Shown in pieces: positions 9,123-39,159 of a DNA stretch of 55,682 bases. The notes beneath the pieces were generated by a model. The model worked only from the letters and a program-made list of their open reading frames with translations, searched no databases and was not told where the DNA came from. This stretch comes from Nemertoderma westbladi (Eukaryota; Animalia; Xenacoelomorpha). The translations under genes and the position numbers were made by a program. Location of the stretch: positions 1-55,682 of the forward strand of contig JAUCBJ010002121.1 in NCBI GenBank assembly GCA_032718475.1, given 5' to 3'. The stretch's first letter is position 1, and each line of letters begins with the position of its first letter.

Positions 9123-9124
9123 AA

Positions 9125-16296: not shown

Positions 16297-16569
16297 ACCC
16301 TTCTCATCATGTTGACAAACTCTTTAAACTGTGATTTATCGACAATGAAAATGGACCCCCCTTAAACCAACTGTAACCACGCAATGGTATTTGTGTTTCC
16401 TCGTGTGTTATGTGGAGTCCAGCGTCACCCTGCAGATGTTTCGACTGACGCAGGGTCGTTTATGTATTGTTTACCCTGATTTTGGTCATCGGGACCAACG
16501 ATATTGGATTATTGGAAATGGTAAAGATTTGAAGTGGAATTCATTGTATCCATTGTAGTATGTTATGTT

Positions 16570-17505: not shown

Positions 17506-20106
17506 ATGGACCCAAATCGCCAAATTATCGGCGAATTACGTAACACGATAGATCTACTGGAATATTCGCAACCCGGATCCCCTGACTTTGATACAAATTG
17601 GAGCACCCTGCTAAATGAGAACGTGCGAGTCGTTAAATTCACTGGGCGAGAGGGACCGGATTCCCGGAACCTACGAGAGCTCCGGTTGGCCGATGCTAGT
17701 ACGAGACTGAAAAGAACTCAGAACGCAAAGGCAACCGGAGGGGACGATTCGTCGTTCTGGGAAACGTTCCGGCAAAGCGTCTACAAATCCCGATGTTTGA
17801 TCTACGACAACGAGGGAAACGCGACACCCACCTCGAAAGCGATTACGTTGGCAAGATGTCAAAGTTTCGTCGACGACAAGAGTACGTACCTCGCCCACTG
17901 GGGAAACCTGTCGGAGTGTACGGTGATGCTTCGAGAGGAACGTATATCGACCATCCAAAATCGCGACGACTACCAAGAAAAATACGGGGCGAAAGAATAC
18001 GGTCGATCCTTGGTCGTTGTCCTCGGAACCCTGGACGGTTTGGTATTGGTGTGTCGAATATTTCCGACACCCAGACAGGAAGTACAGGCAGCCGGAGCGA
18101 TCTGGTTGCTACCTCCGGAAATCCAAAAGATCCTCTTCGACTTCGACGTCACTAAAATCGGGTTGGATATAAAGGCGGACGTCCGGAACGACTACGCGAA
18201 CGCTCCTTCAGGAAGAAACCGATGAGACGACCTCAAAGTCCTTAGCCATTGCGTCGACACTCAAACGCTACTAGCCTGGTTACGATTCGCCGAGTTCATG
18301 CGAGGATTCCAAGAGGTGAGACCGACGAAATCCAGGATCGGCTACCTCGCTGTGCTAAACGGCGGCATCGACTTCAAACCTCAGAAATTCCGGGATTATA
18401 ATAAAATATATGGTGGATACCCGGGATTAGAAATAAAGAGCGAGCGAGAGGGTCGATGGAAGGACGTTGACCGGAAGTGGACGATACACCAAAGGTGGGA
18501 GAATCCCGATTGACGGAACTATATCTACGTCGTTATGGAGTGCTACACCGTCGCTAAGTTTATCTGTAAAACTCTCGATAACCTCATTACGGCGGTTCCT
18601 CTTTCCTTCGTCGACTACGACTGGAACGAGGTTATAAACCACGCATTCAAAGCGGTTGAGAACATCACACCGGGAGAGACGAAAACGCTCGCCGTTATCG
18701 ATTCCTGGGAAGAGAGCGGACCTTACGATATCCCTACGATTACCGATCTTCTCGGTGCGGAGGAGCCTCTGATTTCTTCGGAAGGGGAAGAAATATGGCT
18801 ACATGAGGGTGTTCTACTCTCCACCCCGAAGCGACAACTCGAGCCGGAGGCCGCTTACCAACCGGCAGCCAAACGGGTTGCCTCCTCCGAACCAACGACG
18901 GAAGTGGGCGTTTCCTCACCACTCGGCTTCGGTAGCCCTGCGAGGGAGTTGGTTACTACCTTCGCGTTAAACGACTTCGGCGATTCGCGCCAAAGGTTAT
19001 CCCCGTATCCTTTCCCGGGTGGCGAAGACTGGTCGTCGGAGATTCCGAGTACCAGCAATCAACAGACCCGCTCAGCGATATTGGTCGAGAAGGGCCCCAG
19101 CGCTGCGCCGACTCCCGACGATCTCCTCGGAATCCCTCTGTCGAAAACCCCGGCACCTCTTCACCGACCAGCGGTGGCTACTACACCCTCCATTCCTCAG
19201 GATCCTATGCGACTAACCCGTTGGTACGCCGAGCAAACCGAATGGATCCACCGCCAGAAACGGTCGTCCGAGTTGAGACCGACGGGACACAAAGAAGGTT
19301 ATCGGAGCGAAGAACTACTACGCCAAAGCCCAGCCTTCCGCGGGCTACCGACCACCGCGAATATTCAGAAGAGCGACCGACGACTCGAGTATTACGTCGG
19401 CGTCCCGATTCCGATATTCCCCGGTCGAGAGATGCAGTTGGAGGTGTGCGGTGACTGTGGTTCGGAGCAGTGCCCACGCGGTAGAAGGAATCGGGTTACC
19501 GATTCGTGCCTCCAGCTCCTCGGGATACTCTATTGCCCATACTGCGCGACATCGGGCCACGACGTTTCCGTCTGTCCGATCCTATATAACCTCTGCACCA
19601 CGTGCGGTTTCCGTGGACATTCCTCTAGCCCCCGCTGCTATATCAAATGTCCTACCAAAGACGTTACCGCTATGGGAAATATGGTCATGTTTGAAACATA
19701 CGCAAACAGCCACATAAAGACCAAGGTTCGGAGAAACGCTCGGAATATCGCGCAGGAGATGGCGTGCGGGTATTTCTCCTTCCCGGAACGCCTCCACACG
19801 ACGGCCACGCTGCCTTTCCATTACGTGGATCTGTTGCTGAGCGCCGGATTATTCGGCCCATTCGAAGTCATTAGACGCTTATACTCGTATAAAGAGGAGT
19901 TCGGTGACGGAAAGTAGTTCCTAGAGGCTCACAACTCCGAGTTGGAACGACGAACCGATATGATCCCGATGCCATCGAAAGGAAGAGCCGCCAGGAGACA
20001 AGCCGAAGCGTTGCTCACGATGGATGTTGACGCTCCTCTACCAGCTATAGCGATCGACGAGAGCCGACGGGCGAAGAGGCAAAAGGCGTATCAGAGAAAG
20101 AAATAG
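17506..20106 (+). pseudogene. Element 1 ORF3: DEDDy-like 3'-5' exonuclease + linker + CCHC zinc knuckles (866 codons, three in-frame stops)
   Basis: ORFs 17506, 18298 and 18535 share one frame, split only by TGA 18223, TGA 18511 and TAG 19915; motifs IYDNEG, LPPEIQKILFDFDVTKIGLDIKAD, CVDTQ, YVVME; CPYCATSGHDVSVC and CTTCGFRGHSSSPRC; basic tail. Confidence 0.8.
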
Positions 20107-20280
20107 TGGATCGGGATATTCCAGGAACATTTATTGAACATTTATTTTTATACATATATATATAAACTCTAGGCCAAATTAATCAAAACTATGCAATATT
20201 AAATTTGGGTTTTTTATATTGGGAATGACCTACGCAAACTCAATCTACCGATAGACCTCACGAAGGTCATTGGGGGGGAC

Positions 20281-21781
20281 TGTTCGCGGTATTTCAACTT
20301 TTCATAACGCGAGTTGAATATTTTTTGTATTTATTAAAAATGATTATTCCGATATTACTACTGGGTGCGGGACCATGGGTTTTGGGCACATTCTATAAAC
20401 TGGGGGCGATTTATGGGCGAACTTTGGGGCGACTTACAGGGTACGGGACTAATTTCATGTTTATAAGGGCCAAGGGGGGATGGAAAATTCAAGCAGTATT
20501 CAGGTTAGCCTGATTACTATTAGGCCCTGGCCAACTTCCTGCTGCCTGTAGAGGTGGATTTGGTAACGCGCCAGGCCTAAAGGACAAGGACTGCCCTTAG
20601 CGGTCCCTGGCCAACAGCAGTTATTACGAGCCTGAAAAGGACATCGGAACGCCGGCTGCTTGCGTCAGGGATTTGCGACGGGAAACGACAGCCCCCTTAG
20701 CCAAGCCGTACTGGTTCTCGATGACCGATCCCTTCGGGGTTCGCGAGGGGTGGGACGGACACGCGAAAGGGCGGCCGACTTACAGAGGAAGGGTTTGACG
20801 AGGACTGCCCTTAGCGGTCTCTGGTCAACAGCAGTTATTACGAGCCTGAAAAGGACATCGGAACGCCGGCTGCTTGTACCAGGGATTTGCGACGGGAACC
20901 GACGACAGACCCCTTAGCCAAGCCGTACTGGTTCTCGATGATCGTTCCCTTCGGGGTTCGTGAGGGGTGGGACGGACACGCGACGGGGTCGAAAGACAAA
21001 GGACTGGACTCTACTGGCCTACCGACTGTTCGGAGCAGTTTCTCGGCTGCCGAAGCGACTACGAGCCTGAAAGGGACTCGGAAAGCCTAGGTGGTTGGGT
21101 TTCTGCGATGAACCGACGGACCCCTAGCCAAGCCGTACTGGTTCTCGATGATCGAACCCTTCGGGGTTCGGGAGGGGTGGGACGGACACGCGAACGGGTC
21201 CACCGACACGACAGACTCCTAGCCAAGCCGTACTGGTTCTCGATGACCGATCCCTTCGGGGTTCGAGAGGGGTGGTACGGATACGCGACAGAGTCTACCG
21301 ACTGGACCGACCCTTAGCCAAGCCGTGCTGGTTCTCGATGATCGATCCCTTCGGGGTTCGGGAGGGGTGGAACGGACACGCGACAGGGTCGACCGACACC
21401 GACACTACGGCATCAAGACTAGGACCGAGGGAAAATCTGGGGAACATTAGTTAGGCTAAAATCTGAGCGAACAGTGGGTAATTAAATAATATACTGTAGG
21501 GATTTATATTGTCGTGTATAATTATTGTGAATATTTGGTGTATATTGATTTGGGGAAGCCCAAAATTATTCTCAATCAGGATTGTAACAGGGTTCAGTGA
21601 GATTAACTACATTAAAGAATATATCCAACCAATGCAGCTTTTTCTCAACCGCAATCCTGCATCTAAGAAATTCCTCCTTCTCCACAATCAATATCCGGTG
21701 ACTGGCCGGGACTCCGTGGTCTGTAAAGCCCCGCCTCCAGCATCGGCGTTTTTCCCCCCTGGTGTCGGGATAACGGCAACA
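20281..21781 (+). repeat. 3' LTR of element 1 (1501 bp)
   Basis: Preceded by PPT GGGGGGG-AC; followed by TSD CCACT. Confidence 0.96.
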
Positions 21782-23045
21782 CCACTCCTACCTTTGGGTA
21801 GCGGATAGGGTAGAGCCACTCCTACCTTTGGGTAGCGGATAGGGTAGAGCCACTCCTACCTTCGGGTAGCAGATAGAAGTAGCACCTACGCATACCTCCG
21901 GGTAGCAGACAGAAGTTGCGCCCACCCCTACCTTCGGGTAGCAGATAGAAGTAGCGCACACCCCTACCATCGGGTAGCAGATAGGAGTAGCGCCCACCCC
22001 TACCTTCGGGTAGCAGATAGGATTAGCGCCCACCCCTACCTTCGGGTAGCAAACAGGAGTAGCGCCCACCCGTACCTTCAGGTAGCAGATAGGGTAGAGC
22101 TACTCATACCTTCGGGTAGCAGATAGGGTAGAGCCTCTCCTACCTTCGGGTAGCGGATAGGGTAGAGCCACTCCTACCTTCGGGTAGCAGATAGGGTAGA
22201 GCCACTCCTACCTTCGGGTAGCAGATAGAAGTAGCACCTACTCATACCTTCGGGTAGCAGACATGAGTTGCGCCCACCCCTACCTTCGGGAAGCAGATAG
22301 AATTAGCGCCCACCCCAACCTTCGGGTAGCAGATAGGAGTAGCGCCCACCCCTACCTTTGGGTAGCAGATAGGATTAGTGCCCACCCCTACCTTCGGGTA
22401 GCAGACAGGAGTAGCGCCCACCAGTACCTTTGGGTAGCAGACAGGAGTAGAGCCCACCCCTACCTTCGGGTAGCAGATTGCAGTAGCGCTCGCCCCTACC
22501 TTCAGATGGCAGATATGAGCAGCGCCCACCCCTACCTTCGGGTAGCAGGTAGGAGTAGCGCCCACCCCTACCTTTGGGTAGCAGTTAGGAGCAGCGCCCA
22601 CCCCTACCTTCAGGTAGCAGATAGGATTAGTGCCCATCCCTACCTTCGGGTAGCAGATAGGAGTAGCGCCCACCCCTACCTTCGGGTTGCAGATATCAGT
22701 AGCACCAACCCCTACCTTCGGGCAGCAGATAGGAGTAGCGCCCGTCCCTATCTTCGGGTAGCAGACAGGAGTATCGCCCACCCATACCTTCGGGTAGCAG
22801 ATAGGAGTAGCGCCCACTCCTACCTTCAGGTAGCAGATAGGAGTAGCGTCTACCCTTACCTCAGGGTAGCATATATAAGTAGCGCCCACCCCTACCTTAG
22901 GGTAGCAGATAGGAGTAGCGCCCACCCCTACATTCATGTGGCAGATAGGAGTAGCGCCCATCCCTAACTTCGGGTAGCAGATAGGAGTAGCGCCAATCCC
23001 TACCTTAGGGGTAGCAGATAGGAGTAGCGCCCACCCTTACCGGGT
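21782..23045. repeat. Continuation of the minisatellite, mixed 34-bp and 36-bp units (~35 units)
   Basis: 36-bp unit cccacccctaccttcgggtagcagataggagtagcg; more diverged than the left arm. Confidence 0.93.
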
Positions 23046-23129
23046 TAACAGAGTCTAGGTTTAGTGTAAGTAGCAGCGTGGACAACTACGGTAACATGAA
23101 AGGCTGCTCTATGGTAATACTATACGCAG

Positions 23130-24910
23130 ACTGCTGCATTGCAACTATGCACATTGAGATGCTATGCTGGCTTAATAAAAATATTATTCTGCCACCAACA
23201 TGCAATCCACAATTGGCATGCCCCAATGCACAGTGCATTACGAGTGCTGGCTTATCAACTATGAAACCACAACTCCCTATCCACCATGACTTTTGGGAGA
23301 TTATCCGCATCTTCAAGGCCAGTGTCCTTTAGGAGGCGTCTCACGAAAGTCATGGTCAGTCAACCATGCTTATTTTCTCCATGGGGCTGTCAAAGCACTA
23401 GATTGTGCAGTGTAATCGATTTTTCGCGCCTCCGTAGGCAACAATACAAAAATACGCTCCCTCAAGATTATAATTTAGAAATGCAATAATCACAACATAA
23501 TTATTCCCTTCCCCTTCCCTAACCGCAATACCCCATTGCCATCTACACCCAATATCACGGCCTCCCCAATCCGATCACCTTTCCATTCACCTACTGTGAT
23601 CAACGTAATTATTGCACAATAAAGACAGAGTCTGATTAGGTGATAATTAGGGGTCAACTTCACAATGACCTCAGACACCGGGTTAAAAAGGGCCACATTT
23701 GGATGATTTAAACAGTCAGTAACCACAGGCCTTAGTAGATAGCAGCTTTGGCAGATAATCTAGGCTCTGCTATTCGGTATCGGACCTACACTGCGCCATT
23801 ACTCTGATCCCCTAATGGGACCTAGTGTTTGGATGTGTGGGTAAGGCTCCCGCTGAGAACTGAGCTTTGGCCGACCAGCCCTGAGCGCTAGCGCTCTCTG
23901 CCCCCTGGGCTACTCCGTTCATCTCCGTTCGTTCGAACGGCTTAGTCGTCATGACAAGGTAGCAGCAATCTTCCTGTGTTTTGACTCTGTCAGATTACGG
24001 TAGTGCTTGCGCACTTTCCCCGTAAGTAGACTTAGTGGAGCGACCTCGGTTAGTCCTCTAAGTCGTAGGACAAAGTAGCAGCTAACCATCTGTGTCCAAT
24101 CGGACCCACCCGCGTTTGGACCCAGACGGTAACCTGGTGTTTGTACTATTGCCAAGTTTCCAATAGCGCAAAGCAGCACCAAGTTTAATACGACTTTATT
24201 CTACCCCCTTTTGAGACTTTTAGACTTTGACCTTTTCATACTGTACCTTTGTGTGGATTTTGACTATATTTTTTAGAGTATTTTAGCATAACGAAACGAC
24301 TAAAATACTGTATTTTATGTACTATTATCGATTACAATTTTTTGGATTGTATTATTTTTCGAGGTCATACTTTGGATTCTAACGGACCCAAAGCACCCCT
24401 CACCCTGTTTCTCTTTTTCCCTATTTTTCCCTCAGAGGTTTTTCAATGGTCTTACGTAGAGTACACTATTTTTATACCAGAAGGAAGCAATATAACATCT
24501 GGAGAAACATAAATCACTGTGTGTTAGTACTATCGTGAAAGGATTGTGGATGTCCGTAAATAACAAGTCTTCGAAGGACCGTGTATTATTGCGAGTTATT
24601 TTCAAGTCAGTCTTGATACCGGAGAAACCAAAACAGTAAGGAAAGTGAAGGAACAATTTTTGGAACTTTTAGAGATACAAAGCCGTTTTAGGAGCTTATT
24701 TCCATTACATGCACCAGAACTCACCAGAAATCCATTACATGCAGTGACTGGTCCTCACGGCGAATACAGCGGCCTGCAAAGCGGAGGCGGCTTTGTTCAA
24801 GTGCCAAGCTTGGGGAACCAATGAGACACCGCCAATGTTATATAGTGTCTGGTTGTAGATGTGTGCATTGTACTTGACACAGTGAACCCGAGGTAGCTTT
24901 ATTGTGAATG
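23130..24910 (-). mobile_element. Decayed RTE 3' fragment split by a solo LTR (23130-23410 and 24740-24910)
   Basis: Reverse-complement similarity to ~630-990; continuity restored when 23411-24739 and one TSD copy are removed. Confidence 0.8.
23411..24739. mobile_element. Solo LTR (1329 bp) of a third LTR family
   Basis: TGTAATCGATTT...AAATCCATTACA terminal inverted repeat; 5-bp TSD TGCAG (23406-23410, 24740-24744); no ORF. Confidence 0.85.
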
Positions 24911-26087: not shown

Positions 26088-26166
26088 GGTCCCTATGCGT
26101 TGTTCGAACCCACGACCGCCGGAAAGATGTGAATTTAAGGCAATGGATTTAACCACTACGCCAAGG
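26088..26166 (-). other. tRNA-derived Pol III promoter (A and B boxes), SINE-head or tRNA-pseudogene-like
   Basis: Minus strand reads TGGCGTAGTGG...GGGTTCGAAC; no intact cloverleaf. Confidence 0.55.
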
Positions 26167-27410
26167 TGGGTTCGATATATTTAAATTAGATGTATGCCTA
26201 CCTTTAATGGCATTAAACAAACTTATAAATTAATAACAAATGAACAGAACTTAAACACAGGGACACCTTTAGGCATTAATTGAAGATTGCAGTTAGCGAT
26301 TACTATTCAAATTATAGCTGGGCTGCCACCTAGCGGCCTGGTAATGAACCGACTAATTTTACCTACAGTATATTATTCAGAATGATAGTGATTTTTTATG
26401 TACAAATGTACAATTTTATGTACATTTTGTACAAATTGTTCCAGAATATTGTGTATTTTTATTAAATAGAATAAATGGCCTGCAGTGAACAATAATTCTT
26501 GCAATATTTGAATGCCTATTTCTCAGCTGTTTCTCAACGAAATTCCAGCATTGTTACATATTTGGAATCCTTGCAACGCAAGCTTTCTATTGATGTGAAA
26601 AAATTACGACTAAAGTGAAGAATGGCAATTTTTTTTATTTTATTTTTTATTTATTTATCTTTTTTTTATTTTTATTTTTTTTTATTTTTTATTTATTTTT
26701 ATTTATTTTTATTTTTTTCATATCATTAGAAAGCTTGCGTTGGCACAACTATCAGCAACATAACTGCATAGCATACAGCAGTATAGGCAGACTCATAAAC
26801 TCATATTGTACTGAAGCCCGGGCTGCCAGGATGCCTTCTGGGTCAAATGGTAGTAGATTAGAGAATAGCTTTGGTGTATTAGAAGATATGCAGTTAGATA
26901 CGGCCGGCCAGACCGCTAACACTGAAGATTCCTCTACGCCGGTACTGGGCCTACTAGCACCGGGGACGTGGTACCGGTAATTATCAATACTTGCTTAGCG
27001 GTATCGTTGCAGGGTTTATCGAAGAATACATTTACGGTAACGAGTAATGTCATCTTGGAGAGATTCACGCCCGAAGAGATACTCAAGGTGAAGCAACTGC
27101 TTTCGGAATTGGCCAAGGTTAAACAGACGGGCAGATACTCAAGGAAGGACTGCAGCATCAGCAAATGTCAAGGATACCTGGGATCTATTAGTCGAGTTGG
27201 ACAAAAAAGGAACGCTTCCGGTGATCACCATAGAGGCACTAGAAGCGTTGTCGGTTCCAGTGCTCAAATCTAAGAACAACAGGGAACACGATATGGATGT
27301 TATTACACGTCTCAGTTTATTGGATGAAAAAATCGAGGAGTTTCAAAAGACGGTTAAAGAAAAGTTTAATTCGATGGAAGTAAAACTTGCGGAAAGTATT
27401 AACCCCGAGG

Positions 27411-30400
27411 CGTAACGAAAGAGTAAAGAGCAAAGCAAAGAGCGTGGCGTGAGGCGGAACGTAAGGAACGTGTAGCGAGAGAGGAAAGCGAACGCAGGGA
27501 ACGTGAGGCGAGAGAGGAAAACGAGTGCAAATAACGCGAGGTGAGAGAGGAAAATGAGTGCAAAGAATGCGAGGCGAGAGAGGAAAACGAACGCAGAGAG
27601 CGTGAGGCGAGACGAAGGGAGGGGGCTAGAAGAGAGTTGGAATTGGCTGAGCGGGACGCACGGGAGTGTAGGGAGAGAATGGCAAGAAAGGAGTATGAGC
27701 GAGAAGAGTTAGAGAAACGTCAAGGTGAGCTTAGAGGGTACAAAGCTATACATACGCGCGAACGGGAACTGGCGCGAATAGGGGCGTCTGAGAGTGGGGC
27801 AGGCTCGAGTATTTTCGAGGAGCCAGGGGCTGTGGATACATTTATTAATACCGCACTTACAGGGACCGCACGACAGACCCAAGACTGGTGTGACCGTACG
27901 GGCGGGGGAGGGGTAATAATAATGCTACAGTAGACGTCGTTAATATTAATAGTACCGTATTGGATAACCCTAATCCCTTTATTGCAGCAAATAATACTTT
28001 ACCTAGTAGCAGTAATTTAAATTTAAATACAAATAATAGTTTCAATTTGAACGTGCAAAATAATCCGAATAATAATTTAAATTTAGAAAATAACAATAAT
28101 TCAAATAATTTAAGTAATGATCCAAGCCCGAATTTATAAAATAATTCAAATAATTTAAGTAATGATCCAAGCCCGAATTTACAAAATAATTCAAATGATT
28201 TTGTTTCAAACGAACAAATTAATTCCGTTTCCAATATGGGTGCTATTAACGTGAACACGTCGGGCGTGTATGGCCAGGCAGAAGGGGGCCTGGTAGGCCA
28301 CGTAGTTGGTAGGGAGGGAGTGGCTGGGTTGGGTAGACCCAGAGAGGGCCTGGTAGGCCACGTAGTTGGTAGGCCGGAGCAGACGGGGTTGAGCCAACCC
28401 AGAGAGGGCCTGGTAGGCCACGTAATTGGTAGGCAGGGAGTGGCTGGGTTGGGTAGACCCAGCGAGGGCCTGGTAGGCCACGTAGTTGGTAGGCAGGGAG
28501 TAGAGGGCCTGGTAGGCCACGCAATAGCAGAGGATGAGGCGGGGGTGAATAGACCCGACCGCGGTAGGGTTGATGTGTCGACTGGAGAGGGATATAGTAG
28601 CGGGGTGAGAGATAGCGAAGTTAGATGTGGCGAGTGGGGGGGGGGGGGGGGGGGGGGGGGGCTACAGGGGCCCCACAACAGCGAGTTAGCGGCGAAAGGG
28701 GGGGGGGGGCAGAGAGTGTCCCACAGCCGTCAGCGGATAATGCGCGGGCCGAAATAGGTAAACCGCAACACCCGGCGACGGAAAGCAATAGGGGGATTGC
28801 GAGTATCCCCAGCGGCGTGCGACCGAGCAGAGAGAGACAGGTTGACGTCGTAAGAGGGCGGACGAAGCGTCGAGCCCGATCAGAAGAGGGAAGAAGATCA
28901 GTGGGGTTTAACCGGGAGGTCGACGAGAGATCTCACGAGCGGGAATACTCCACTGAAAGGAGAAGAAGAGAAGATAGTAGTAGAAGTATCGCCGCGAACG
29001 ATAGAAGAGCGAGGACGGATAGCGAGCCGTCGGTAGTCAAGATGAGAACAGAGAGTCAGTGGGGTCGGACTCCGGGAGATTGCCATCGCCCCGGAGAGAT
29101 GCGACCTGGTGAGGCGCATTACGCGCCGATGGAGGGGTACGCGATGTACCGGTACAAAGACGAGGACAGTAGAGGGGGGGGGGGGGGGGGTCGAAGAGAA
29201 ACTTTCCGACGGAATATACCTACCGATCGAGAATACGGTAGCCGCGGGGAGGACTATTCGAGAAGAATAAACTTCGATCCCGAGCGACACATGCAGACTG
29301 TAGGACATACTGTAGGCCTTACTGCACATACCATAGGCCATACTGACAGAGGCAATGTAGGCGATAGGATAGCGCGGACGATGGGATTAAACCCGGAAGT
29401 CGCGGAATACATACCGGCGAGTAGGCCAGAAGCTGATAGGCCTATACCGGTACCAGTACAGCAGTATGACTACAGCATGCAGGGACATAACATATACCCA
29501 GGGGAGGGGGGAATTATTGCGGATAGGTGTATGGGCCCCAACATATTAACATCAACCCCAGTACCAAACATAGAGGTGGGAGGGGGGGGGGGGGGGGGGC
29601 AGGGTGACATTCCCCCATCACAATATCAACAATATACCCCGATAGGAGCAAGAACAACGGGACCCTTGGATAAAAATAGGTCATGCGACACAGAAATATG
29701 GAGGGGGCCGCTACCCCCGATGACATATCCAAGTCAAAGGAAAGGTGGAAATAGGACAGACGGACCGCACCAGACAGGAGAAACTATACAACATCCATCG
29801 AACCCATTGGAAGCACAGGCGATGGGGATGGCCACGTTGATCGATGCGTTGAAAACGAGGATCGAGTTACCACCCGTGCCGTGGAACCATTCAAATTCGA
29901 TGGGAGTAGGCCGGAAGAATATCTACAGTTTCAGCGCATGTATAGTAACGAAATACTAACAAAGAACTTCATGCAGGCGGAGGAGTGCCTAAAGTATCTG
30001 CAAGTATACACGGGAGGCCCAGTATACGATATCGTGAGGCAATACCAAGGCATAGAGGGCGGCTTCACGACAGCATGGCGGGCACTGGATAGGGAATACG
30101 GGCACCCGGCCAAGATCATCAGGCAGACACTGAGAGGCATAACATCGTGTGGCCTACAGGATAATCCCGTTAGCATTAAGACGTTCGCTAACAAAGTCGA
30201 AAAGGCGCTAATCGTGCTGGAGACGCTAAACGCGCCATACGAGCTCAACGCGTCCAACAACATCACCACGATAGCGCAGGCACTACCGAACTGGCTGCGC
30301 AACAAGTGGAGGAAAATCGCTTTCTCCACTCGAGACAAGAAGGGTGTGGAACCGGGTTTAGAAGAAATGTCAAGCTTCTTAAACTACGAGGCTGAACTGA

Positions 30401-33400
30401 TAACTGACCCAGTCTATAGCGAAGATAGCCTGGGAAAGGGACCGAAGACGGATTACCATAGACCGAAGCCAGAGCACAATACATCAAACGCATTACCGAG
30501 GCTCAGGCAATCATTGCCATATGCAGCGACGCAGGGGACTGCGAGTCCACAGATAGCCGAAAGTAAGACCACACCATGGAACGGACAGGGGAACAATAAC
30601 AACACAAATAAATATAACCCCAGTACGTCCAGTAGGCCGAATCCAAACAATAAGAATAGTAGGGACTTTGGTACAAACGCGGCTGCGATACGCAATGCGC
30701 TGTATAAGGAGGGCTACGACCCAAAGAGCAAATGCAAGCTACACGCAAATGCGCTTCATCAAACCATGAACTGCAGTTACTGGCAGGCGCTACCTAGGCA
30801 AGATCAGATAGATTATGCGTTGAGCAATAAAATCTGCTCGCGATGTGTGATGAGTGGACATAGAGCTAGGGAATGCAAGGAGAAGCCGGTAAAGTTCGGT
30901 CAAAGGAGAGGCCAAACGATGGCAACGAGCACAGTAGGGGCGAAGAAGAGAGGAACGGTGTTACTTGGAGTAGTACCCGTGCGAGTGATTGGAGAAGGCA
31001 ATCGATCAGTAACAACACTAATGCTGGTTGATAGTGGAGCTGCCTTCACATTAGTCGAGGAATGGGTGGCCGAAGAGATAGGATTGAGAACGAGGCCAAG
31101 CAGAATGGCGGTAACAACCATCTCTAGCAAAGATGAGATCCTGGAGATGAGAACCGGACGGTGCGCGATTGCAGCAGTGGCACCGGGATGCGACTATGGG
31201 GCAACCATCGACCCCATCCAAGTGATAGAGTCAATTAATATCAATGCCAGGCGGCCAACCAACATCGAGGTCGAGCAATATAAATTCCTGGACGACATTG
31301 ACTTCTCAATCCCAGATGTGGACGTTAGGAAGGTATCCATCATAGTAGGAATGGACTGCCCAACGGCCCACGAAAGAATGCAAATGGTCTTCGGCGAAGA
31401 CAAGCAGTGTGACCCGGTGGCGATATTAACACCATTCGGGTGGACGCTGAGTGGCCCAATCAAGAGCAAGATACCATTTAGGATGTCGGAGACATCAGGA
31501 TGCATGTTCGCGGGAACAATGCAGGAAATGGGCGATGAGGGAGCAGAGGAGCAGCTTAAAAGACTGCTCAGACAAGATTTCGAGGGACTGAAAGAGACCG
31601 GGGTCGGGACCTCGGTAGAAGACAAGCAGGCTTTACAAAGCGTGGAGGAATCGATGACATGCGATGAGGGGCGGTATACTATAGGAATGGTATGGAAACT
31701 ACCGAAGATACCACTACCCGATAATAGAGGGATGGTACTCACGAGACTCCGCAAGCTGAAACAAACACTAAAACGGAGCCCTGAGAAGAATGAGTATATC
31801 CACAGAACGATTAAGAAATACGTCGAGAAAGGATGGGCCGTGGAGTTACCGGTCGACGAACCGAACACGGACAGGACATATTACCTGCCACTCCACGTGG
31901 CTTTAGACCCAAAGAAAGGTAAACTGCGGATGGTAGTTGACGCATCGGCAAAGACCAACGGAAAATGCTTAAACGACTATCTGTTAGAAGGTCCAAACAT
32001 ATACAACTCGGGCATAGAGGTCCTACTTAGATTTAGGAATGGGAAACACGCCTTCACGTGTGACATAGAAGGCATGTTCAACCAAGTCCGTGTAACGGAG
32101 GAAGACAGCGACAGTCAACGCTTCTTATGGTATAACGGCGAGGAAGAACCGTCGATAATACCGGCATATAAGATGGTAGTACAAAACATGGGGGCCAAGT
32201 CGTCTTCATTTACGACGACTATGGCAGTGAGAGACACAGTGAAGGGGAAGGAAGATAGATACAGCACTAGGGCCGTCGATATGATTCGACGCGGCTTCTA
32301 CGTAGACGACGGAATGGAGTCTGGAAATACGGTTAATGAGATATTGGACACAGGGCGCGAGGTTCGCGACATCCTAAAAGGATCCGGCTTTAACCTGACC
32401 AAATTCCAATCCAGTTCGGAAGAATTTATCAAGGCGATAGAGGACAAGAGACCAGAATCGACCATGGATAATCCCACAACAGCCAAAGGGCAGGACATGG
32501 CGAACAAGAGAACAGAATCTCAACAGAAGGCATTGGGAATCGTGTGGAACAGAGAGACAGACGAACTGAAGTATCAGCTGAGCCAGGAGGGCGCAGACAT
32601 CCACACGAAGAGGGGCTATGTATCGTATATAGCAAGGATATACGATCCCCTAGGCCTAGCATCCCCATTATTAGTCACGGGGAAACAGATACTCAAGAGA
32701 GTATACAAATTGAAGGATGAGTGGGATGTAGAGGTACCAGAGGAAATCAAGAAACAGTGGAGTAAGTGGACAGGAGACTTGGAGAAGATGGGAACATACA
32801 ACATGCCACGAGTGTATTTCCCGGATGGGAACATGACGAATCTGGACCTACACATGTTCTCCGATGCGTCGTTGGAGGCGTACGGAGCGGCACTCTATTT
32901 AGTACAACGAGAGGGGGCTCATAAGCCCAGACTGGCCTTTAGCAAAGCAAAGTCAAGATTCAGCATCAGTTCCCAAGTTAGAATTGACAGCTGCGAGACT
33001 AGGAGTTAGGGCCACAGCCTACCTAGTGGATACTATTCCCAACATAGTGGAGACACACTACTGGACGGACTCCATGGTAGTGCTTGGTTGGCTACATAAC
33101 GAAAGGACGAGATACCCAATATTCGTCGCAAATAGAGTGGACGAAATAAGGGCGACCACAGAACTGGAAAGCTGGCACTACTGCCCAACGGACGAGAACC
33201 CAGAGGACTTGTTGTCGAGGGGCGTGGTACGCCACACTTTCTTGAAGAAGGAAGTATTGTGGCAACATGGGCCACAATTTCTGAGCGATAAGGAGGCCTG
33301 GCCGCCGATGAGAAAGGTGGATCCGGGCTCAGAAGTAGTGTCAGAGGGAGAAGAAGGAGATTCAGAGGGAGAAGAGATATACTCCCAGATGGTGAGGGAG

Positions 33401-34912
33401 ATTAGGGACGTGCAACCAAAGCAAGAACTATGCGATAACCCGACGGATAAACTCCTCAGCTACAGTTCTAGTTGGTATAAGACCAAGAAATTAGTGGCGT
33501 ACTGGAGAGCCTTCGGGAATTTCCTCGCGGGAGTCGGCAAAGACAAGTAGATCAGGACATCCATAGATCTGGAAGGAGCGGCCAAGGCGGTCCTCCGCTA
33601 TGAACAACGGAAGAACTATGGCGACGAGGTGGAACGCGTCGGTAACCAACAGCACCTCCGACGGGACAGCGAGCTGATCACGCTGTCGTCACAACTTAAT
33701 GACGACGGGATTCTAGTAATGAATTCTAGGGTGGGATACAAAAACAGCATAATCGTACCATCGAAACCCATCATCATTCCAACAGGATCGCCAATAGTCC
33801 ACCAGATTATCTGGGACTCCCATAAGTCGATATTGCACGGGGGCACCAACAGAACTCTCACGGAGATAAGGAGGACCTTTTGGGTCAAACAGTTGAGGAA
33901 GAAGGTAAAAGCGGTAGTGGGGCAGTGCCAGACCTGCCGATGAGCGAAGAAGGAGCGAGCCATACAAGAGATGGCGCCACTACCAGCGAGTAGAGTAAGA
34001 CAGCACGACCCGCCATTTACGCATTGCGGTGTGGACATGTTCGGGCCGATAAAGATCAAGGTGATGCGGCACACGGAGAAACGCTACGGTATCATCTTCA
34101 TATGTAACAACACGCGGGCGGTAGGGATAGAACTCGCCCAAGATGCAACCGCATCAGCATTCATTAATGCCTTAGAAAGGTTTAGAGACCGCAAAGGTGG
34201 GACGATCACAGTGATATACAGCGACAACGGCACCAACTTTGTGGGCGCAGAGAATGAGATGGCAGAGGCCTTGGACATCTTGGAAGGGGAGGAAGTCAGG
34301 GCGGCCATGAGACGACGACAAGTAAAGTGGGAGAGAAGGACGCCGTATGCACCACATACACTAGTGGGCAGTTCAAAGCGTCTAATGACGAAGCTAATGA
34401 ACACCCACATGGTCACTGAGGACGTCTTACGGACAGTGCTTGCGAAGTGCGAGGGGATCATTAATAGCAGACCGCTATATCCGGAGAATGATGACCCTGA
34501 ATCACTAGACGTGCTGACGCCTAGCCATTTTCTAATGGAAAGGCCAGACCCCATCGATATGCGGGGTGTAGATCCAGACGACATACACTCCCGTCAGAGT
34601 TGGAAAGTCGCTAAAGCAATAAGTGCCGAGTATTGGAGGAGGTGGGTCGAAGAATACCTGCCCACGCTCCATAAAAGAAGCAAGTGGAGGAAGCCGAATA
34701 GGGAGTTAAGAGAGGGAGATCTCGTAATCGTTACGGATGATACTATCATCAACAACCAATGGCGGTTGGCGAGAGTTGTGGGCACTTACTCCGACGAGGA
34801 CGGAAGAGTCCGATCGGTAGAAGTGCGGATAGGTGGCAAGATAGGTGCGAAGGACAGAAAAACCTACAGGAGAGCTGTAGGGAAATGCTGTCTGTTAGAA
34901 GGGGCACCTTAG
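27411..34912 (+). pseudogene. gag-pol: Element 2 gag-pol, broken by several frameshifts, stops and deletions
   Basis: FDGSRPEEY, CSRCVMSGHRAREC, VDSGA, DIEGMF, YVDD, FSDAS, YWTDS, FVANR, GVDMFGP, SDNGTNF, LTPSHF across ORFs 28625, 29881, 32984, 33629 and 33971. Confidence 0.92.
28286..28520 (+). repeat. 60-bp coding tandem repeat in element 2 gag
   Basis: gagggcctggtaggccacgtagttggtagg recurs at 60-bp spacing (EGLVGHVVGR repeats). Confidence 0.85.
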
Positions 34913-35064
34913 TGGAGTTAGAGAAGAGTTTAGTCATCCAAGATTTGGACTGAGGGGGGTGGGATTGAGGGCGAGACGCCCTTCCCAAACATAAAAAAAA
35001 AATTGAAAATAAAATAAAATAATAGTACATAGTAGGTACGCAGTTAGTAGGCAGAAGTAAGTTA

Positions 35065-35502
35065 AGAGGTACGTAGTACCTAGAGTTAGTTAGTTAGTTA
35101 GGAGGTACGAGAGAGTTAGAGGGTACGTAGTACCGCTAGTTAGTTAGAGAGTTAGAGGGTATGTAGTACCGTTAGTTAAAGAGTTAGAGGGTACATAGTA
35201 CCGTTAGTTAGAGAGTTAGAGGGTACGTAGTACCGTTAGTTAGAGAGTTAGAGGGTACGTAGTACCGTTAGTTAGAGTGTTAGAGGGTACGTAGTGCCAT
35301 TAGTTAGAGAGTTAGAGGGTACGTAGTACCGTTAGTTAGAGAGTTAGAGGGTACGTAGTACCGTTAGTTAGAGAGTTAGAGGGTACGTAGTACCATTAGT
35401 TAGAGAGTTAGAGGGTACGTAGTACCGTTAGTTAGAGAGTTAGAGGGTACGTAGTACCGTTAGTTAGAGTGTTAGAGGGTACGTAGTGCCATTAGTTAGA
35501 GT
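35065..35502. repeat. 32-bp tandem array in the pol-ORF3 spacer of element 2
   Basis: Unit gagttagagggtacgtagtaccgttagttaga, ~12-13 copies, each with a GGTAC-gta-GTACC hairpin. Confidence 0.92.
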
Positions 35503-35977
35503 AAGAATTAGAAGGGTATATAAGATATAGATATTAGTTAGCAGTTAGTAGCGAGAGGGGGGCATATGAGTACAGCTGGGTAAATCGTGTGGCCATGCGA
35601 CACATACTGCTGTACTGCACAGGCCCACAGAGTAGGCCAGAATGTGGATTAGAGAATAGAATAATCCATAGGCAATAGTAAGTAGTAGGACAGTAGAATT
35701 AAAACTAAACTAAAATAAATAGAATAGGGCTGAAAGTTACAAATTATGGCAACACTAGGAAAGTTATTCTGGAACATAATAAAAGTAACTGACAGAAATT
35801 GAAATTAGGGTGTATTTACTAGCTTCAGAATTAATTAGTAATAATTTAGGCTAAAAGGGCGCAGTTGAGTAAGGAATAGGCCATTATCGGACCGTACAGA
35901 ACATCTTAGATACATCACTCATCTGTATTGCGCCTTGGTAAGGCACCACCTTACAGGTGAGCGAGTGAGTGTTCGGA

Positions 35978-38293
35978 ATGGCGAGCAAATTGATCAGAAA
36001 GAGAAAGGCGGAGTCAGGAGGAAAGGAGATACTGGTGGATTTCACCGAGAGGCATCCGGAAGAGAAGACGAGAGGATACTACGAGAGGTTGGAAAGGGGT
36101 CACGCGGCACGAGCGCTGCAGGATCACTTCCGGGAGATGCACGAACAGCGGCTGGTCGGGACCTACGGGACGCCGTCGCTGGACAACGCGATCTTCCAAC
36201 ACTTCCACTACGTGGTGAAAGGGGACGAGGCGAAGTTCGGGATTCCGAAGTACCCGAGGGAATCACCGAGGAAGGATTGGAAGAGATTCATAGAGTCCGT
36301 CAACAGGGGAGGATATATGATCCTAGACGACGAGGGAACCGTGGAAGACGAGGAGGGTTCGAGACGAGGATCGGCGGGGTCGGCCAGGACCATACTCCTA
36401 CATTTGGCCGCGCCAAATGGGGACATCTTCTTATTCGATCTAGGAACGTATGGGAAGAAGGACGGGCCGAAATTAAACCGGTTGCCGAAAGCGGTACAAG
36501 TCTTGGTAAGAGAGAAGTCGACGACGAAAGTAGGATCGGCGATTCGCGAGGACGCGGAGAGAATCATCGGTCCGGACGCCACCAACCTCCTGGATATGCA
36601 GAAGGTCTTCATGGCTATGACGGCACCGGATGGGTTGGGGGTAGTCGGAAACACAGGCCAATGCGGGGCGGTGGCAATGGGCCAACTATTGGGGCTCGTA
36701 TGCCACAAACCGATGGACTGGGGGAAGTTCAGGGAAGAATACGGAGCAGAACTAGCGAACTCGCTAAAGTGGGGAGCGAGACCGGGAAAGCAAGAGGTAT
36801 ATCAATTCCGCAGAGGAGCGATAAAGGTATATCAGAAGCGATATATCCTGCAGGAAGATTGGATGATGATAAGTTTGCTTAACTTATTTATGACCGTGGT
36901 TATCGAGAGGGAACCAGCGGCATTTCTGTTATCGGGATCACCCCTAAGCTACAGGAGAGCCTTTAAAATGGCCTTCGACGGTCTGGTAGACCACCCGGGG
37001 CTGAAGGGCGAGTCGGTGTACTACAACAGCCGACATCTGGTAGACGGGGAGACAGATACGCCGTATCAGAGATGGGAGCAGCTAGAGACGGATAGACGAG
37101 AAGCAAAGCGACTGGAAGAAGTCGCTAGACGGGAGAGGATAGAAGCAGAGGAGAGGGAAGAGGAGGCCAGGACGCAGAGTTACGGCTTCGAGGAACAGGC
37201 AGGCTTAGACGAACTTCATTGGACTTCATCAGGGAGTTCGGGGGAGTCTCTAGGGCGAGAATTGGGATGGACGGTGGGATCGCCGAAACAGTCGACGTCG
37301 GGGCTGCAAGAGATGCCCATACCAGCGGGCGCCGAAGGCGACCAACCGCCAAGGAAGTTAAGGGAGCTAGAGGGATGGAGAGCTACGGGCGAGAGCCAAG
37401 GCGGGAAGGGACATAGTGGATCCATCGGGATACCGGGGTTGGAGCCACTGCCAGAGGAGGAGGAGGACGACGACGAGTTCGGAGGGGTGCCGCCCATCGA
37501 GAGGATTGGCCACTCGGACACGGACTGGGTTGGCGGGAGGGTGGTGACGGCCAGTGGGGCGAGGGCCTTCTGGAACAGATCCGGCAAGCGGACCTGGGTG
37601 CACGAGGAGCCGGCGATGGATTTCGCGGGGAGCACTATCAGGTTGGGCGAGCAACCGGGGACGGCACCACGGGTAGTATTCGGGGAGACGATGCCCGAGA
37701 GGGGCGGAGAGATCGACGTAGACAGGGACACCAACGTGGAGAAGTTCGCCTACCAGCGACTCCACAGACCGCGGAGATCGCTTGGGACGAAAGACGACGT
37801 GGGGCGGGAGACATTGGTACTCGGTTGCGACTACTGTGGGAGACAGACCCACCAGGAAAGGAGCTGCTTGTACCGGTTCCAAAAGGGAACCTTTTGTCTC
37901 TACTGCCGAGAGCCGAGCCACAGGATGGGGGCGTGTCCACGGTTGCATAACCGATGTCCGAAGTGCAACTTTCGGGGACACTACGGACGCCAGTGCGACT
38001 GGATGGACGACGAAGAGAAGTTCAGAAGATTCGAGGAGTGGGCCGACGTCGGGGCCATGACGCGCCAGCGCATGAAGGCCCAGGAGTTCAAGTGGGGTTT
38101 CTTCCTTATCAATCAGGAGGCTCACATGGAAATCATAAAGCAGAGGCTACCGTTTACCTATCAAGAGGTAGCAACGGCGGCGTCGTATGCCGGAGTGATG
38201 AATACACAAAGATATTTGGACAGGTGGACGCCACCAGAGGGAGACAACAGGGCCACTCTGAGGGGCCACCGGCGAAGCGATATCGGGCACTAA
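35978..38293 (+). CDS. Element 2 ORF3: DEDDy-like 3'-5' exonuclease + linker + three CCHC zinc knuckles
   Basis: Open ~771 codons from ATG 35978; ILDDEG, LLHLAAPNGDIFLFDL, LPKAVQVLVREKSTTKVGSAIRED, LLDMQ, YILQED; three Cx2Cx4Hx4C; may extend by frameshift to a basic tail ending 38448. Confidence 0.85.
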   Translation: MASKLIRKRKAESGGKEILVDFTERHPEEKTRGYYERLERGHAARALQDHFREMHEQRLVGTYGTPSLDNAIFQHFHYVVKGDEAKFGIPKYPRESPRKDWKRFIESVNRGGYMILDDEGTVEDEEGSRRGSAGSARTILLHLAAPNGDIFLFDLGTYGKKDGPKLNRLPKAVQVLVREKSTTKVGSAIREDAERIIGPDATNLLDMQKVFMAMTAPDGLGVVGNTGQCGAVAMGQLLGLVCHKPMDWGKFREEYGAELANSLKWGARPGKQEVYQFRRGAIKVYQKRYILQEDWMMISLLNLFMTVVIEREPAAFLLSGSPLSYRRAFKMAFDGLVDHPGLKGESVYYNSRHLVDGETDTPYQRWEQLETDRREAKRLEEVARRERIEAEEREEEARTQSYGFEEQAGLDELHWTSSGSSGESLGRELGWTVGSPKQSTSGLQEMPIPAGAEGDQPPRKLRELEGWRATGESQGGKGHSGSIGIPGLEPLPEEEEDDDEFGGVPPIERIGHSDTDWVGGRVVTASGARAFWNRSGKRTWVHEEPAMDFAGSTIRLGEQPGTAPRVVFGETMPERGGEIDVDRDTNVEKFAYQRLHRPRRSLGTKDDVGRETLVLGCDYCGRQTHQERSCLYRFQKGTFCLYCREPSHRMGACPRLHNRCPKCNFRGHYGRQCDWMDDEEKFRRFEEWADVGAMTRQRMKAQEFKWGFFLINQEAHMEIIKQRLPFTYQEVATAASYAGVMNTQRYLDRWTPPEGDNRATLRGHRRSDIGH

Positions 38294-39159
38294 TAACACC
38301 AGCGCCCAAGGAGCCAACAACTGGGATCAGTAGGGAGGTGGCGGCGAAAGTCCGAAAGCAGAAAGCGGATCCCAGAGGAGCGGTAGTAACCAAGAAACGA
38401 CCCAGGGAAGAGGTCGCCAGAGGGAACTATCTCCAGAGGAACAGATAGGTTCCCAGGGCCGGGGGAGAGAAACTGAGACTTGGACGTGGTACGCCTGGAA
38501 GGCGCCGCGTGAGACGTACGAACTATTAAGTACAAACTAAGCTGATGCAAAATAATTAAATAAGTGCAATTATATGTACGTACGTAGTGATCAGTAGTTT
38601 AGCAATAAAATATACGTTCAGAGTAAGTACTATAGTCATACAACCTTTCTCAATTAGCTACTGGGACTGGGGGGATAACTGACTATGGCACTATGGACGA
38701 GACACCAGACGATTTCACACTTCTTGAGTGTGACGGCACAAGAGGGGGGGGGGGGGAGACTCGTCAGAAGGCATGAGGTAGCCAAAGAGAAACGGAGTAA
38801 TAGTGCGAAGTGCGGAGAGAGTGCGGACGCAATTCTAGTGTGGGGGGGGGGGAGAATAAGAGGCTGAGTGAGGGACGAGGAGGTCCGAGGGTACGAGAGA
38901 GTTAGGGTGAGAGTGGAGAAGAGATAGGGCGAAAGTGTTGGGGAAACAAAAGTCGCGTGAGAGGTGAGCGCGATCGGCCCGACATGGGACGCCAGGCATA
39001 CAGGGTAGCGTTATCATACCCATAGGGAGCGGCCTGGAAAGCCGGCTCCGAGAGAAAAGAATTCCACCCCACACCCGATACTAGATCGGGATCCAGCGGG
39101 ATTGTAGCGCACTTTAGGTGGATGCTATCTTCTCACCGGGAAGATAGCATGGGGGGGAG

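Follow-up and report, generated by a model that had tools for sequence, protein, structure and literature searches.

In bdelloid rotifers, the LTR retrotransposons Juno and Vesta, together with the Terminons, carry a third open reading frame (ORF3) that encodes a DEDDy exonuclease (Rodriguez, Kenefick, Arkhipova 2017, PMC5408684). The preliminary description of the locus studied here had pointed to such extra ORFs in rotifer Gypsy-type elements, and this is borne out by that account, in which Juno and Vesta appear as Gypsy-like lineages whose ORF3 was gained at least two times and is common to Penelope-like elements (PMC5408684). The same source describes EXD1 and Maelstrom as dead derivatives that have retained RNA binding. 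The combination of a DEDDy exonuclease with zinc knuckles is termed very unusual in the paper on Trypanosoma brucei RNase D (TbRND), whose knuckles raise both RNA binding and cleavage (PMC7797062). Within Bel/Pao, Tas, Cer7, Cer13, and Atlas possess a third coding region behind the integrase, described as encoding a membrane glycoprotein (PMC8742986, PMC554778, PMC9094657); the elements reported here likewise have a third coding region behind the integrase, but its product is a predicted soluble nuclease-knuckle protein. The preliminary description knew of no exonuclease-knuckle Bel/Pao lineage, and searches of the literature likewise turned up no nuclease ORF3 for Bel/Pao.

Two Bel/Pao Elements in Nemertoderma westbladi

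The window is the whole stretch of DNA that was analyzed, 55,682 nt of N. westbladi (assembly GCA_032718475.1, contig JAUCBJ010002121.1, positions 1-55,682, forward strand), and all features given below lie on its plus strand. Both of its elements are Bel/Pao, as first proposed: Pfam Peptidase_A17, DUF1759, and DUF5641 are present in each, within a Gag-PR-RT-RH-IN order that includes Pao-specific domains and the YVDD and DAS motifs. The families of both elements are abundant repeats in the host, and in contigs assembled from DNA runs ORF3 is covered to the same depth as pol in each.

Element 1 is bounded by a 5' LTR (7617-9122, 1506 bp, TG...CA) and a 3' LTR (20281-21781, 1501 bp) that differ by 14 substitutions and one gap, and a 5-bp target duplication (CCACT) flanks it on both sides. 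Its 5' LTR shows CpG-type decay in the host, a polypurine tract occupies 20272-20280, and by eye no canonical primer-binding site, which in Bel/Pao would match tRNA-Arg or tRNA-Gly, is evident after the 5' LTR. The total length is 14.2 kb, against an ICTV range of 4-10 kb for the family (PMC8742986). The gag-pol region (9524-16296) encodes Gag with Cys-His boxes, PR, RT (YVDD at 13595), RNase H (DAS at 14126), IN, and DUF5641, with a single frame change near 14330 and zero in-frame stops. Two of the Gag boxes are found by pattern (11798 and 11897) and a third, with an HH doublet, by eye; a triple Cys-His box in Gag is a Bel/Pao trait (PMC554778). ORF3 spans 17506-20106 (866 codons) and is interrupted by stops at 18223, 18511, and 19915. 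Contigs from three DNA runs mismatch the window at 18223 at close to full depth, and at least this stop is therefore private to the window's copy. An alternative genetic code is unneeded as an account of these stops, since the relatives' frames are long and open under the standard code.

Element 2 is 5'-truncated. Its gag-pol (27400-34912, the start being approximate and taken from contig depth) has a gag part rich in stops, a frame change near 32955, and stops at 33548 and 33941; it retains the RT YVDD at 32299 and one Gag Cys-His box by pattern. ORF3 (35978-38293) is intact, at 771 aa. The 3' LTR extends over 38729-39688, its end being an 8-bp inverted repeat of its start, with a possible alternative start at 38680 behind a G-rich tract. 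The initial picture of two elements, each with a sense ORF between pol and the 3' LTR, thus needs amendment: the ORF coordinates stand in both, but the frame of element 1 is not open, and an LTR pair exists for element 1 only, the 3' LTR alone of element 2 lying within the window. This LTR shows no similarity to those of element 1, the best matches being 15-22 nt long with E of at least 0.04.

Architecture of the ORF3 Proteins

Both proteins consist of a DEDDy exonuclease domain, a variable linker, three CCHC knuckles, and a conserved helical tail, and the motifs on which their kinship was first proposed are present and colinear in both. How well the two align depends on the region. The C-terminal Cys/His block aligns strongly (BLASTP E=1e-13, 28% identity over 184 aa; z=25 against 300 shuffles), while the N-terminal domains lack significance in pairwise comparison (E=0.22 and 1.1; z=2.1). 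Consequently, homology of the N-terminal domains rests on the family profile, which they match at 81.6 and 103.4 bits, or at 27.4 and 47.1 bits when the profile is built from motif-found loci alone.

Assignment of the N-terminal domain to the DEDDy family (RNase D/WRN/EXD/Mut-7) is upheld by profile, language-model, and fold searches, with one correction, namely that the last catalytic Asp (ExoIII) is replaced by Glu in both proteins. A DnaQ-like fold with ExoI, ExoII, and ExoIII in order is recovered directly for element 2 and through the family profile for element 1. In element 1 the domain lies at about 17758-18660, with an insertion of ~55 residues after ExoI and catalytic positions at D101 (17806), E103 (17812), D225 (18178), Y341 (18526), and E345 (18538). 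In element 2 it lies at 36155-37027 (residues about 60-350), with D117 (36326), E119 (36332), D192 (36551), Y289 (36842), and E293 (36854). The resulting DEDYE set is shared by all six members of their group; the canonical DEDYD occurs in 42/69 library relatives and 19/41 intact loci. Judged from this Glu, nuclease activity of the window proteins is not assured.

Against the PDB, the family profile matches EXD2 (E=9e-16), TbRND over both domains (5e-10), Egalitarian (2e-6), and WRN (1e-4). An AlphaFold model of the element 2 protein built from 84 sequences has a pLDDT of 68.7 overall and mostly above 80 within the two domains; the single-sequence model, at 34.5, is uninformative. Foldseek matches this 84-sequence model to RNase D, with TbRND at the top, Egalitarian, Rrp6, and Nibbler, and in structure comparison Nibbler is closest (Z 13.5, rmsd 3.7, 209 residues aligned), though tied within 1 with the next two matches. 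Fold similarity is no guide to the substrate, as exonucleases that act on DNA (WRN, NrnC, and those of polymerases) also come within 1.5 Z. Identity in structural alignments to host proteins of the EXD2/Nibbler/WRN/Egalitarian/EXD1 type is just 12-18%, too low to point to a donor gene. The closest structural relatives of the nuclease work on small or localized RNAs. BFVD yielded giant-virus and phage exonucleases and no retrotransposon protein, and the ESM Atlas gave PF01612 in 25/30 matches for element 2 (score 0.94).

Because Pfam misses both the nuclease and the knuckle domains, these proteins are invisible to standard annotation. At E<=0.1 it returns zero matches on either window ORF3 (that of element 1 searched as its two longest open pieces), and PF01612 appears as two sub-threshold matches among 62 relatives. 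Annotation in the clusters of 20 relatives consists solely of 'hypothetical protein', twice.

The knuckles behind the nuclease were correctly recognized at the outset but undercounted, there being three and not two. In element 1, knuckles (19447-19638) and tail together occupy 19447-19905, and the first knuckle has Cys in place of His. In element 2, knuckles and tail occupy 37826-38221, the knuckles being C617-C630, C640-C653, and C660-C673, and the conserved tail residues F685, E686, A689, G692, T695, R698, W706, G707, and F708; residues 621-710 are modeled at pLDDT 85-98. Each ligand column of the C-x2-C-x4-H-x4-C pattern is kept in 181-261 of 261 aligned members, a conservation that for the last two knuckle sets is partly due to selection by the search motif. 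The knuckle profile matches Lin28 and nucleocapsids in the PDB. In the ESM Atlas the best knuckle match scores 0.86, a lead only.

The proposal that ORF3 is no membrane-type env is supported by these domains. Searches of Pfam, PDB profiles, Foldseek, and BFVD revealed no env-type homology; 19-residue hydropathy peaks at 1.35 in element 2 and at 2.08 in element 1 (residue 168), and this sole hydrophobic segment aligns with strands predicted to form the nuclease core.

Inheritance, Selection, and Loss Among Relatives

The ORF3 family comprises 193 library matches, and the predicted linkage to Bel/Pao pol is found in metagenome loci, where 27/29 of those with more than 3 kb upstream have pol on the same strand (40/120 loci with flanks of just 300 bp were left out). 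Peptidase_A17 or DUF5641 was present in 14/14 of the pol ORFs scanned near relatives. Pol is absent from the 8.9 kb upstream of one locus (L013) and from the 1.3-2.3 kb upstream of three others (L009, L033, L075). Two assembly prefixes account for 65/80 flanked loci, so the host range may be narrow. One candidate, L074, proved to be a chance motif match inside a pyrophosphatase gene, and a repeat protein (P0020) was dropped from the domain counts. A viral contig collection gave zero matches to ORF3 or pol. Word-indexed homologue searches returned nothing for the element 2 ORF3 or for the 84-sequence alignment, and 8 close relatives for the nuclease region of one member.

Vertical retention of ORF3, as had been surmised, is confirmed by the agreement of integrase and ORF3 trees for 28 elements: the ORF3 tree recovers 11/12 strong integrase splits and contradicts 0, and the distances correlate with a Mantel rho of 0.81. 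Purifying selection acts on both domains in 17/17 pairs, with dN/dS of 0.03-0.51 for the nuclease and 0.03-0.48 for the knuckles, dead-clade pairs included; these are whole-domain averages and show no sign of positive selection. For integrase, two dN/dS comparisons with L040 were out of frame and set aside. Such data bear on whether ORF3 is a passenger fragment of a host gene, or a gene kept for host benefit. The intact ORF3 behind the broken gag-pol of element 2 would suit this, as would the few loci without pol nearby, but element 1 has the reverse pattern, a gag-pol without stops and a broken ORF3. The matching depth of ORF3 and pol, the co-diverging trees, and dN/dS far below 1 between element families also argue against it, leaving it largely refuted and with scarcely any likelihood.

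Of 115 members, 76 have the full catalytic set, 3 a partial set, and 36 a dead one, and the dead nucleases remain conserved under purifying selection. In two relatives (L048, L061) an ORF3 behind pol has knuckles only, the nuclease domain being absent. Nidovirus ExoN is a proofreader for the nidovirus polymerase, and ORF3 might similarly proofread reverse transcription, one of the three roles first put forward, beside small-RNA counter-defense and the processing of primers or RNA ends. The DEDD fold is common to polymerase exonucleases, readthrough would join ORF3 to RT, and the elements are long by the ICTV range. The family is nearest to stand-alone EXD2, Nibbler, and RNase D, however, and the option is weakened by the purifying selection on members without catalytic residues and by those without a nuclease; it appears very improbable. 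Little better, though still improbable, is a role as an RNA-localization adaptor, a counterpart of Egalitarian that takes element RNA to the germ line and substitutes for env as a means of reaching new cells. Egalitarian is among the top matches and has been solved with localization signals, one of them from the I-factor retrotransposon; the conserved dead nucleases and the position of the gene at the env site fit as well. Set against this are the many members with a full catalytic set and the fact that active nucleases score at least as well as Egalitarian.

Expression and the Readthrough Signature

SIRE1 has a pol-to-env readthrough. In 15/35 relatives pol ends in a UGA followed by a stem-loop, and in 10/35 the pol-ORF3 junction is in frame and without stops, compared with 1.8 expected. 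UGA-C stands at the junction in 10/12 long-open cases versus 3/23 others, and the stem, of 7-11 bp, lies at +8 to +11. Stems were located sequence by sequence; the search interval was set after viewing the data and was the same for controls. When 13 junctions were aligned with MAFFT, RNAalifold recovered no consensus structure. Leaky UGA context, 3' stem-loop, and open ORF together make up a signature of readthrough, by which ORF3 would become joined to Gag-Pol, and about 15/35 relatives may make a Gag-Pol-ORF3 protein in this way. The signal is absent from both window elements and from 20/35 relatives. Given that the pol-ORF3 spacers of the window elements (1.2 and 1.06 kb) contain stops, expression of ORF3 would there depend on splicing or on internal initiation of the message.

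A readthrough product would package ORF3 along with Pol, which lends some credit to a doubtful alternative in which ORF3 belongs to the particle or RNP and works on nucleic acids of the element itself, as a second RNA chaperone of nucleocapsid type whose nuclease would trim the tRNA primer, overhangs of the cDNA, or the 3' end of the genomic RNA. The similarity of the knuckles to nucleocapsid and Lin28 and the lack of an evident primer-binding site in element 1 agree with this. However, gag and pol suffice for replication of described Bel/Pao elements (PMC8742986), the signal is confined to a minority of relatives, and catalysis has been lost in about one third of members.

A Possible Role in Counter-Silencing

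The reading favored here, at a probability of roughly 0.45, is that ORF3 is an old, vertically inherited Bel/Pao accessory gene for a predicted DEDDy nuclease with knuckles, likely an RNA-binding counter-silencing factor. Its identity and inheritance are close to certain on sequence grounds; the counter-silencing role is tentative, and somewhat short of an even chance. By analogy with the trypanosome enzyme, the knuckles would hold single-stranded RNA so that the 3' terminus enters a two-metal active site. Because the nuclease is dead in almost a third of members yet conserved, and absent in two, RNA binding looks to be the central task, with catalysis optional. Catalytically active forms might trim or destroy host small RNAs directed at the element, and dead forms might sequester such RNAs or shield the element RNA. 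In favor of this role are the small or localized RNAs on which the nearest structural relatives act, and the abundance of both repeat families in a host where the 5' LTR shows CpG-type decay. Against counter-silencing, a Gag-Pol readthrough fusion suits particle delivery no less well than it suits suppression in the cytoplasm, and host conflict might leave positive selection, which dN/dS does not reveal. The most far-reaching version, that an undescribed ancient Bel/Pao clade swapped env for a Nibbler/EXD2-like nuclease-knuckle protein disarming piRNA/siRNA defense, with sub-lineages turning it into a dead RNA decoy and joining it to Gag-Pol by UGA-stem-loop readthrough, is unlikely to hold in full.

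If the counter-silencing role is true, ORF3 would be an animal retrotransposon suppressor of small-RNA silencing derived from a trimming enzyme of the silencing pathway itself, and would address the open question of whether animal retrotransposons have their own counter-defense against small-RNA silencing. More broadly, the family is a natural comparative series in which complete, dead, and nuclease-less versions, many of them intact, stand on one tree and span different apparent expression routes, with TbRND as a solved structural analogue.

Comparison with Known Systems

With the present findings, nuclease ORF3s occur in a second LTR superfamily besides the Gypsy-like elements of rotifers, and relatives add a well-supported pol-to-ORF3 readthrough signal. 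Like Juno and Vesta, these elements have a separate RNase D-like DEDDy ORF behind pol, with a variant motif (DEED in rotifers) and without env features. Unlike them, they belong to Bel/Pao, and their ORF3 forms one co-diverging family with a triple knuckle and tail, a DEDY-E variant, a dead clade, and the readthrough signal in relatives; the account of the rotifer elements describes no knuckle fusion in its main text (PMC5408684). The readthrough signal resembles the alphavirus type, a UGA usually followed by C, a stem-loop, and a long in-frame ORF (PMC8310308), but would here link Gag-Pol to a nuclease-knuckle protein that is in most cases catalytically dead. EXD2, best by profile, Nibbler/Mut-7, best by structure, WRN-exo, Egalitarian, and EXD1 share the fold and motif order of the ORF3 nuclease, but are host genes without such a knuckle domain. 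TbRND (PDB 7C42/7C45) likewise has tandem CCHC knuckles behind a DEDDy exonuclease; it is described as a mitochondrial enzyme of the cell, with a linker of 28 residues and four knuckles (PMC7797062), whereas in the window proteins the linker is disordered and ~200-250 residues long, and the knuckles number three and are joined by a conserved tail.

Two divergent elements and their surroundings

Two Bel/Pao retrotransposons lie on the plus strand of the window, each carrying between pol and the 3' LTR a sense ORF (ORF3) with a predicted DEDDy exonuclease. Element 1 (7617-21781, 14.2 kb) has LTRs of 1506 and 1501 bp that begin with TG and end with CA, is flanked by a 5-bp target duplication and possesses a polypurine tract; its two LTRs disagree at 14 of 1501 aligned sites, so the insertion is young. 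Its gag-pol (9524-16296) carries the YVDD and DAS motifs and changes frame once near 14330; its ORF3 (17506-20106) begins 1.2 kb further on. Element 2 extends from about 27400 to 39688, limits taken from contig depth, which is at flank level beyond them; its gag-pol is broken, its ORF3 (771 aa) is intact and its 3' LTR is present. The preliminary description of two divergent Bel/Pao elements with a third ORF holds for the Pao-specific Pfam domains, the integrase regions (32% identical) and the unrelated LTRs, but must be qualified for three in-frame stops in element 1 ORF3 and the absent 5' LTR of element 2. In this organism both families are repeated abundantly, with thousands of contigs at 85-100% likeness, and contig coverage of ORF3, as summed depth rather than copy number, is as continuous as that of pol in both.

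At 10 of the 14 differing LTR sites (7617-9122 versus 20281-21781) the 5' LTR has TG or CA and the 3' LTR CG, a pattern that points to CpG methylation and decay on one side, in element 1's promoter LTR. Each of these LTRs contains internal repeats of 95 bp and about 220 bp. Element 1 is flanked by a 34-bp satellite (6177-7616, 42 copies) and a 36-bp satellite (21782-23041, 35 copies); because these differ on its two sides and are about 80% alike, it sits at a boundary of two satellite subtypes. Its pol-ORF3 spacer (16300-17050) shows a short motif three times and raised contig depth, and that of element 2 (1.06 kb) holds a 32-bp tandem array (35110-35501, 12 copies). The plus strand of element 2 is strongly purine-skewed (27000-39000; GC skew +0.10 to +0.43, AT skew +0.13 to +0.34), in contrast to element 1, where GC skew is near zero. 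Directly 5' of element 2's truncated end is a low-depth, coding-looking stretch (26830-27393). Elsewhere (1-1009, 48383-49995, 1719-2486, 52922-54889) the window holds two inverted non-LTR retrotransposon pieces (96-97% identical; RVT_1, DUF6451), a weak GIY-YIG match (E=0.08) and an otopetrin ORF containing a 30-33-bp repeat.

A predicted nuclease joined to zinc knuckles

By sequence comparison the two ORF3s are homologous. That they share one protein, as first proposed, is borne out pairwise for the C-terminal block (E=1e-13; z=25) but not for the N-terminal block (z=2.1), whose kinship appears through the family. Searching 1.84 billion proteins with a profile of both ORF3s gives 193 matches at E<=0.001; a common N-terminal domain is present in 75 of the 87 proteins of at least 450 aa among the 150 matches listed of these 193. 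A profile of that domain from which the window proteins were left out gives them 81.6 and 103.4 bits. Another, drawn from 16 loci that came solely through the knuckle DNA pattern, matches the two ORF3s (47.1 and 27.4 bits) and no further place in a six-frame search of the window.

The N-terminal domain is, on sequence and predicted structure, a DEDDy exonuclease fold, in agreement with the initial family call. An 84-sequence profile matches EXD2 (9e-16), Trypanosoma brucei RNase D (TbRND; 5e-10), Egalitarian (2e-6) and WRN (1e-4), with motifs ExoI, II and III in register; PF01612 clusters account for 25 of 30 ESM Atlas matches (score 0.94); and the AlphaFold model, in which two domains are confident and the linker (residues 411-612) is disordered, matches RNase D, Egalitarian, Rrp6, Nibbler, NrnC, WRN and EXD1 in Foldseek and VIA-align. 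These fold matches are tied and therefore no single donor can be named; Egalitarian is one of them, and an Egalitarian-like transport role for ORF3 is unlikely. The top Atlas feature matches to the nuclease region (0.95) are 213-214-aa clusters without a name; those of known source are mostly basidiomycete.

In the C-terminal domain three CCHC knuckles precede a conserved helical tail, F-E-x2-A-x2-G-x2-T-x2-R...W-G-F. One library protein (P0003) has the knuckle domain twice, and three metagenome loci (L006, L044, L053) bear low-complexity extensions of about 900 residues N-terminal to the nuclease.

Both window ORF3s read D-E-D-Y-E at the catalytic positions. Canonical D-E-D-Y-D is the commonest state among the matches listed (42/69 library proteins, 19/41 intact loci), and the E variant, with the other four residues kept, characterises six divergent proteins that group together (support 0.67). 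Among 115 members four acidic residues are present in 76 and three in 3, while 36 lack the catalytic residues (dead), some dead singletons perhaps being misaligned or decayed. The dead state requires 10 changes on the tree versus 30.7 for shuffled labels and includes one large clade; at two further loci (L048, L061) the long ORF3 behind pol has knuckles but no detectable nuclease. Because the loci were found through the knuckle domain, nuclease-only forms would have escaped the search. Judged from these residues, catalysis looks optional in the family, and a proofreading role for ORF3 is very improbable. One variant (L009, L033, L075, L017), near-identical in three assemblies, reads N-E-E-H-N, with no pol within 1.3-2.3 kb upstream.

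Linkage, inheritance and selection

The knuckle DNA pattern recovered at least 120 metagenome loci, 80 of those listed having flanks; these are not independent hosts, because 65 of the 80 carry two accession prefixes. Among the matches listed, the nuclease domain lies upstream of the knuckles at 57/80 flanked loci and at 42/47 where over 2.5 kb of contig precedes the motif. The expected linkage to Bel/Pao is likewise plain among them: same-strand pol is upstream at 27/29 loci offering over 3 kb of upstream sequence and at 35/43 offering over 1 kb, and all 14 pol ORFs scanned by Pfam are Bel/Pao. Listed loci without pol upstream are L006, whose own long ORF occupies the whole contig, L013, L009/L033/L075 (one sequence), L036, L054 and L078; Pfam found no Gypsy or Copia domain in the ORFs scanned from pol-less loci. 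At L004 a knuckle-only ORF of the family precedes a 980-aa ORF with an N-terminal zf-Di19, Bel/Pao pol is absent, and the locus is possibly a different mobile element.

Vertical retention, proposed at the outset, is upheld by FastTree trees of 28 elements, all of them ORF3 carriers, in which integrase alone was compared with ORF3: distances are correlated (Mantel rho 0.81, p=0.0005), of the 12 integrase splits supported at 0.95 or more 11 recur and none is contradicted, and elements 1 and 2 are sisters in both trees (0.99, 0.91). A single origin of ORF3 in Bel/Pao is likely on these phylogenies. Nei-Gojobori dN/dS, rough because dS is high (0.5-2.2), indicates purifying selection in all 17 pairs on the nuclease (0.03-0.51) and the knuckle domain (0.03-0.48), and it persists in dead-clade pairs; that ORF3 is a passenger or serves the host is highly improbable.

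Expression in relatives

A readthrough signal between pol and ORF3 is predicted in relatives. Among the matches listed, ORF3 lies in frame behind the pol stop with no other stop at 10/35 loci versus 1.8 expected; where a long open frame follows (12 loci) the stop is always UGA, with C next in 10 versus 3/23 others. A perfect 7-11 bp stem starts 8-11 nt 3' of the stop at 15 loci of this type, both arms differing in sequence between loci, and reaches p<=0.05 against dinucleotide shuffles at 12/15 versus 0/22 others; these counts are not independent, because 13 of the 15 loci belong to the dead clade. RNAalifold on a plain alignment of the junctions gave no consensus structure, and window elements 1 and 2 lack the UGA-stem signal. 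A TCGG-core motif lies at about +19 to +24 after the pol stop, in a bulge of the predicted stem, at L002, L008, L022, L034, L035, L038, L040, L064, L067, L068, L071 and L072. CGG and CAA-UUA are readthrough contexts, and SIRE1 is a precedent for readthrough in a retrotransposon (pol-to-env). The junctions resemble the UGA and 3' stem-loop of alphavirus readthrough, as described in PMC8310308. At L044 (1269-1273) the pol stop and the start codon of ORF3 overlap, and at L007 the start codon follows 2-3 bases later, an arrangement that may provide a third expression route by termination-reinitiation.

Candidate function and comparison with known systems

In TbRND (PMC7797062) the DEDDy domain and tandem knuckles cooperate, the knuckles holding upstream RNA and boosting cleavage; by analogy, ORF3 knuckles would bind RNA upstream and raise cleavage. 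That ORF3 acts instead as a particle or RNP factor is a tentative possibility, rather doubtful. An RNA-binding counter-silencing factor is the candidate role favoured over all rivals (probability roughly 0.4), because described Bel/Pao elements manage without ORF3, because members have repeatedly lost catalysis yet retained the protein, and because the closest relatives work on RNAs that are small or localised.

Extra domains may occur in nematode Cer elements. The ICTV profile of Belpaoviridae gives gag, pol and env as sole genes (PMC8742986), and a word search of PMC3118150, PMC6238403 and PMC8556966 (main text) finds neither exonuclease nor nuclease. In keeping with the earlier statement that no Bel/Pao lineage with an exonuclease-knuckle fusion was known, full-text literature searches (supplements, Repbase and GyDB being outside their scope) found no Bel/Pao nuclease ORF3. 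A DEDDy domain occurs in some Dada DNA transposons (PMC3706591, in part). The Bel/Pao ORF3 is a real finding beside the DEDDy ORF3s already known, as stated at the outset for rotifers, from the elements Juno, Vesta and Terminons (PMC5408684; also PMC6431247, PMC5718144, PMC6338049).
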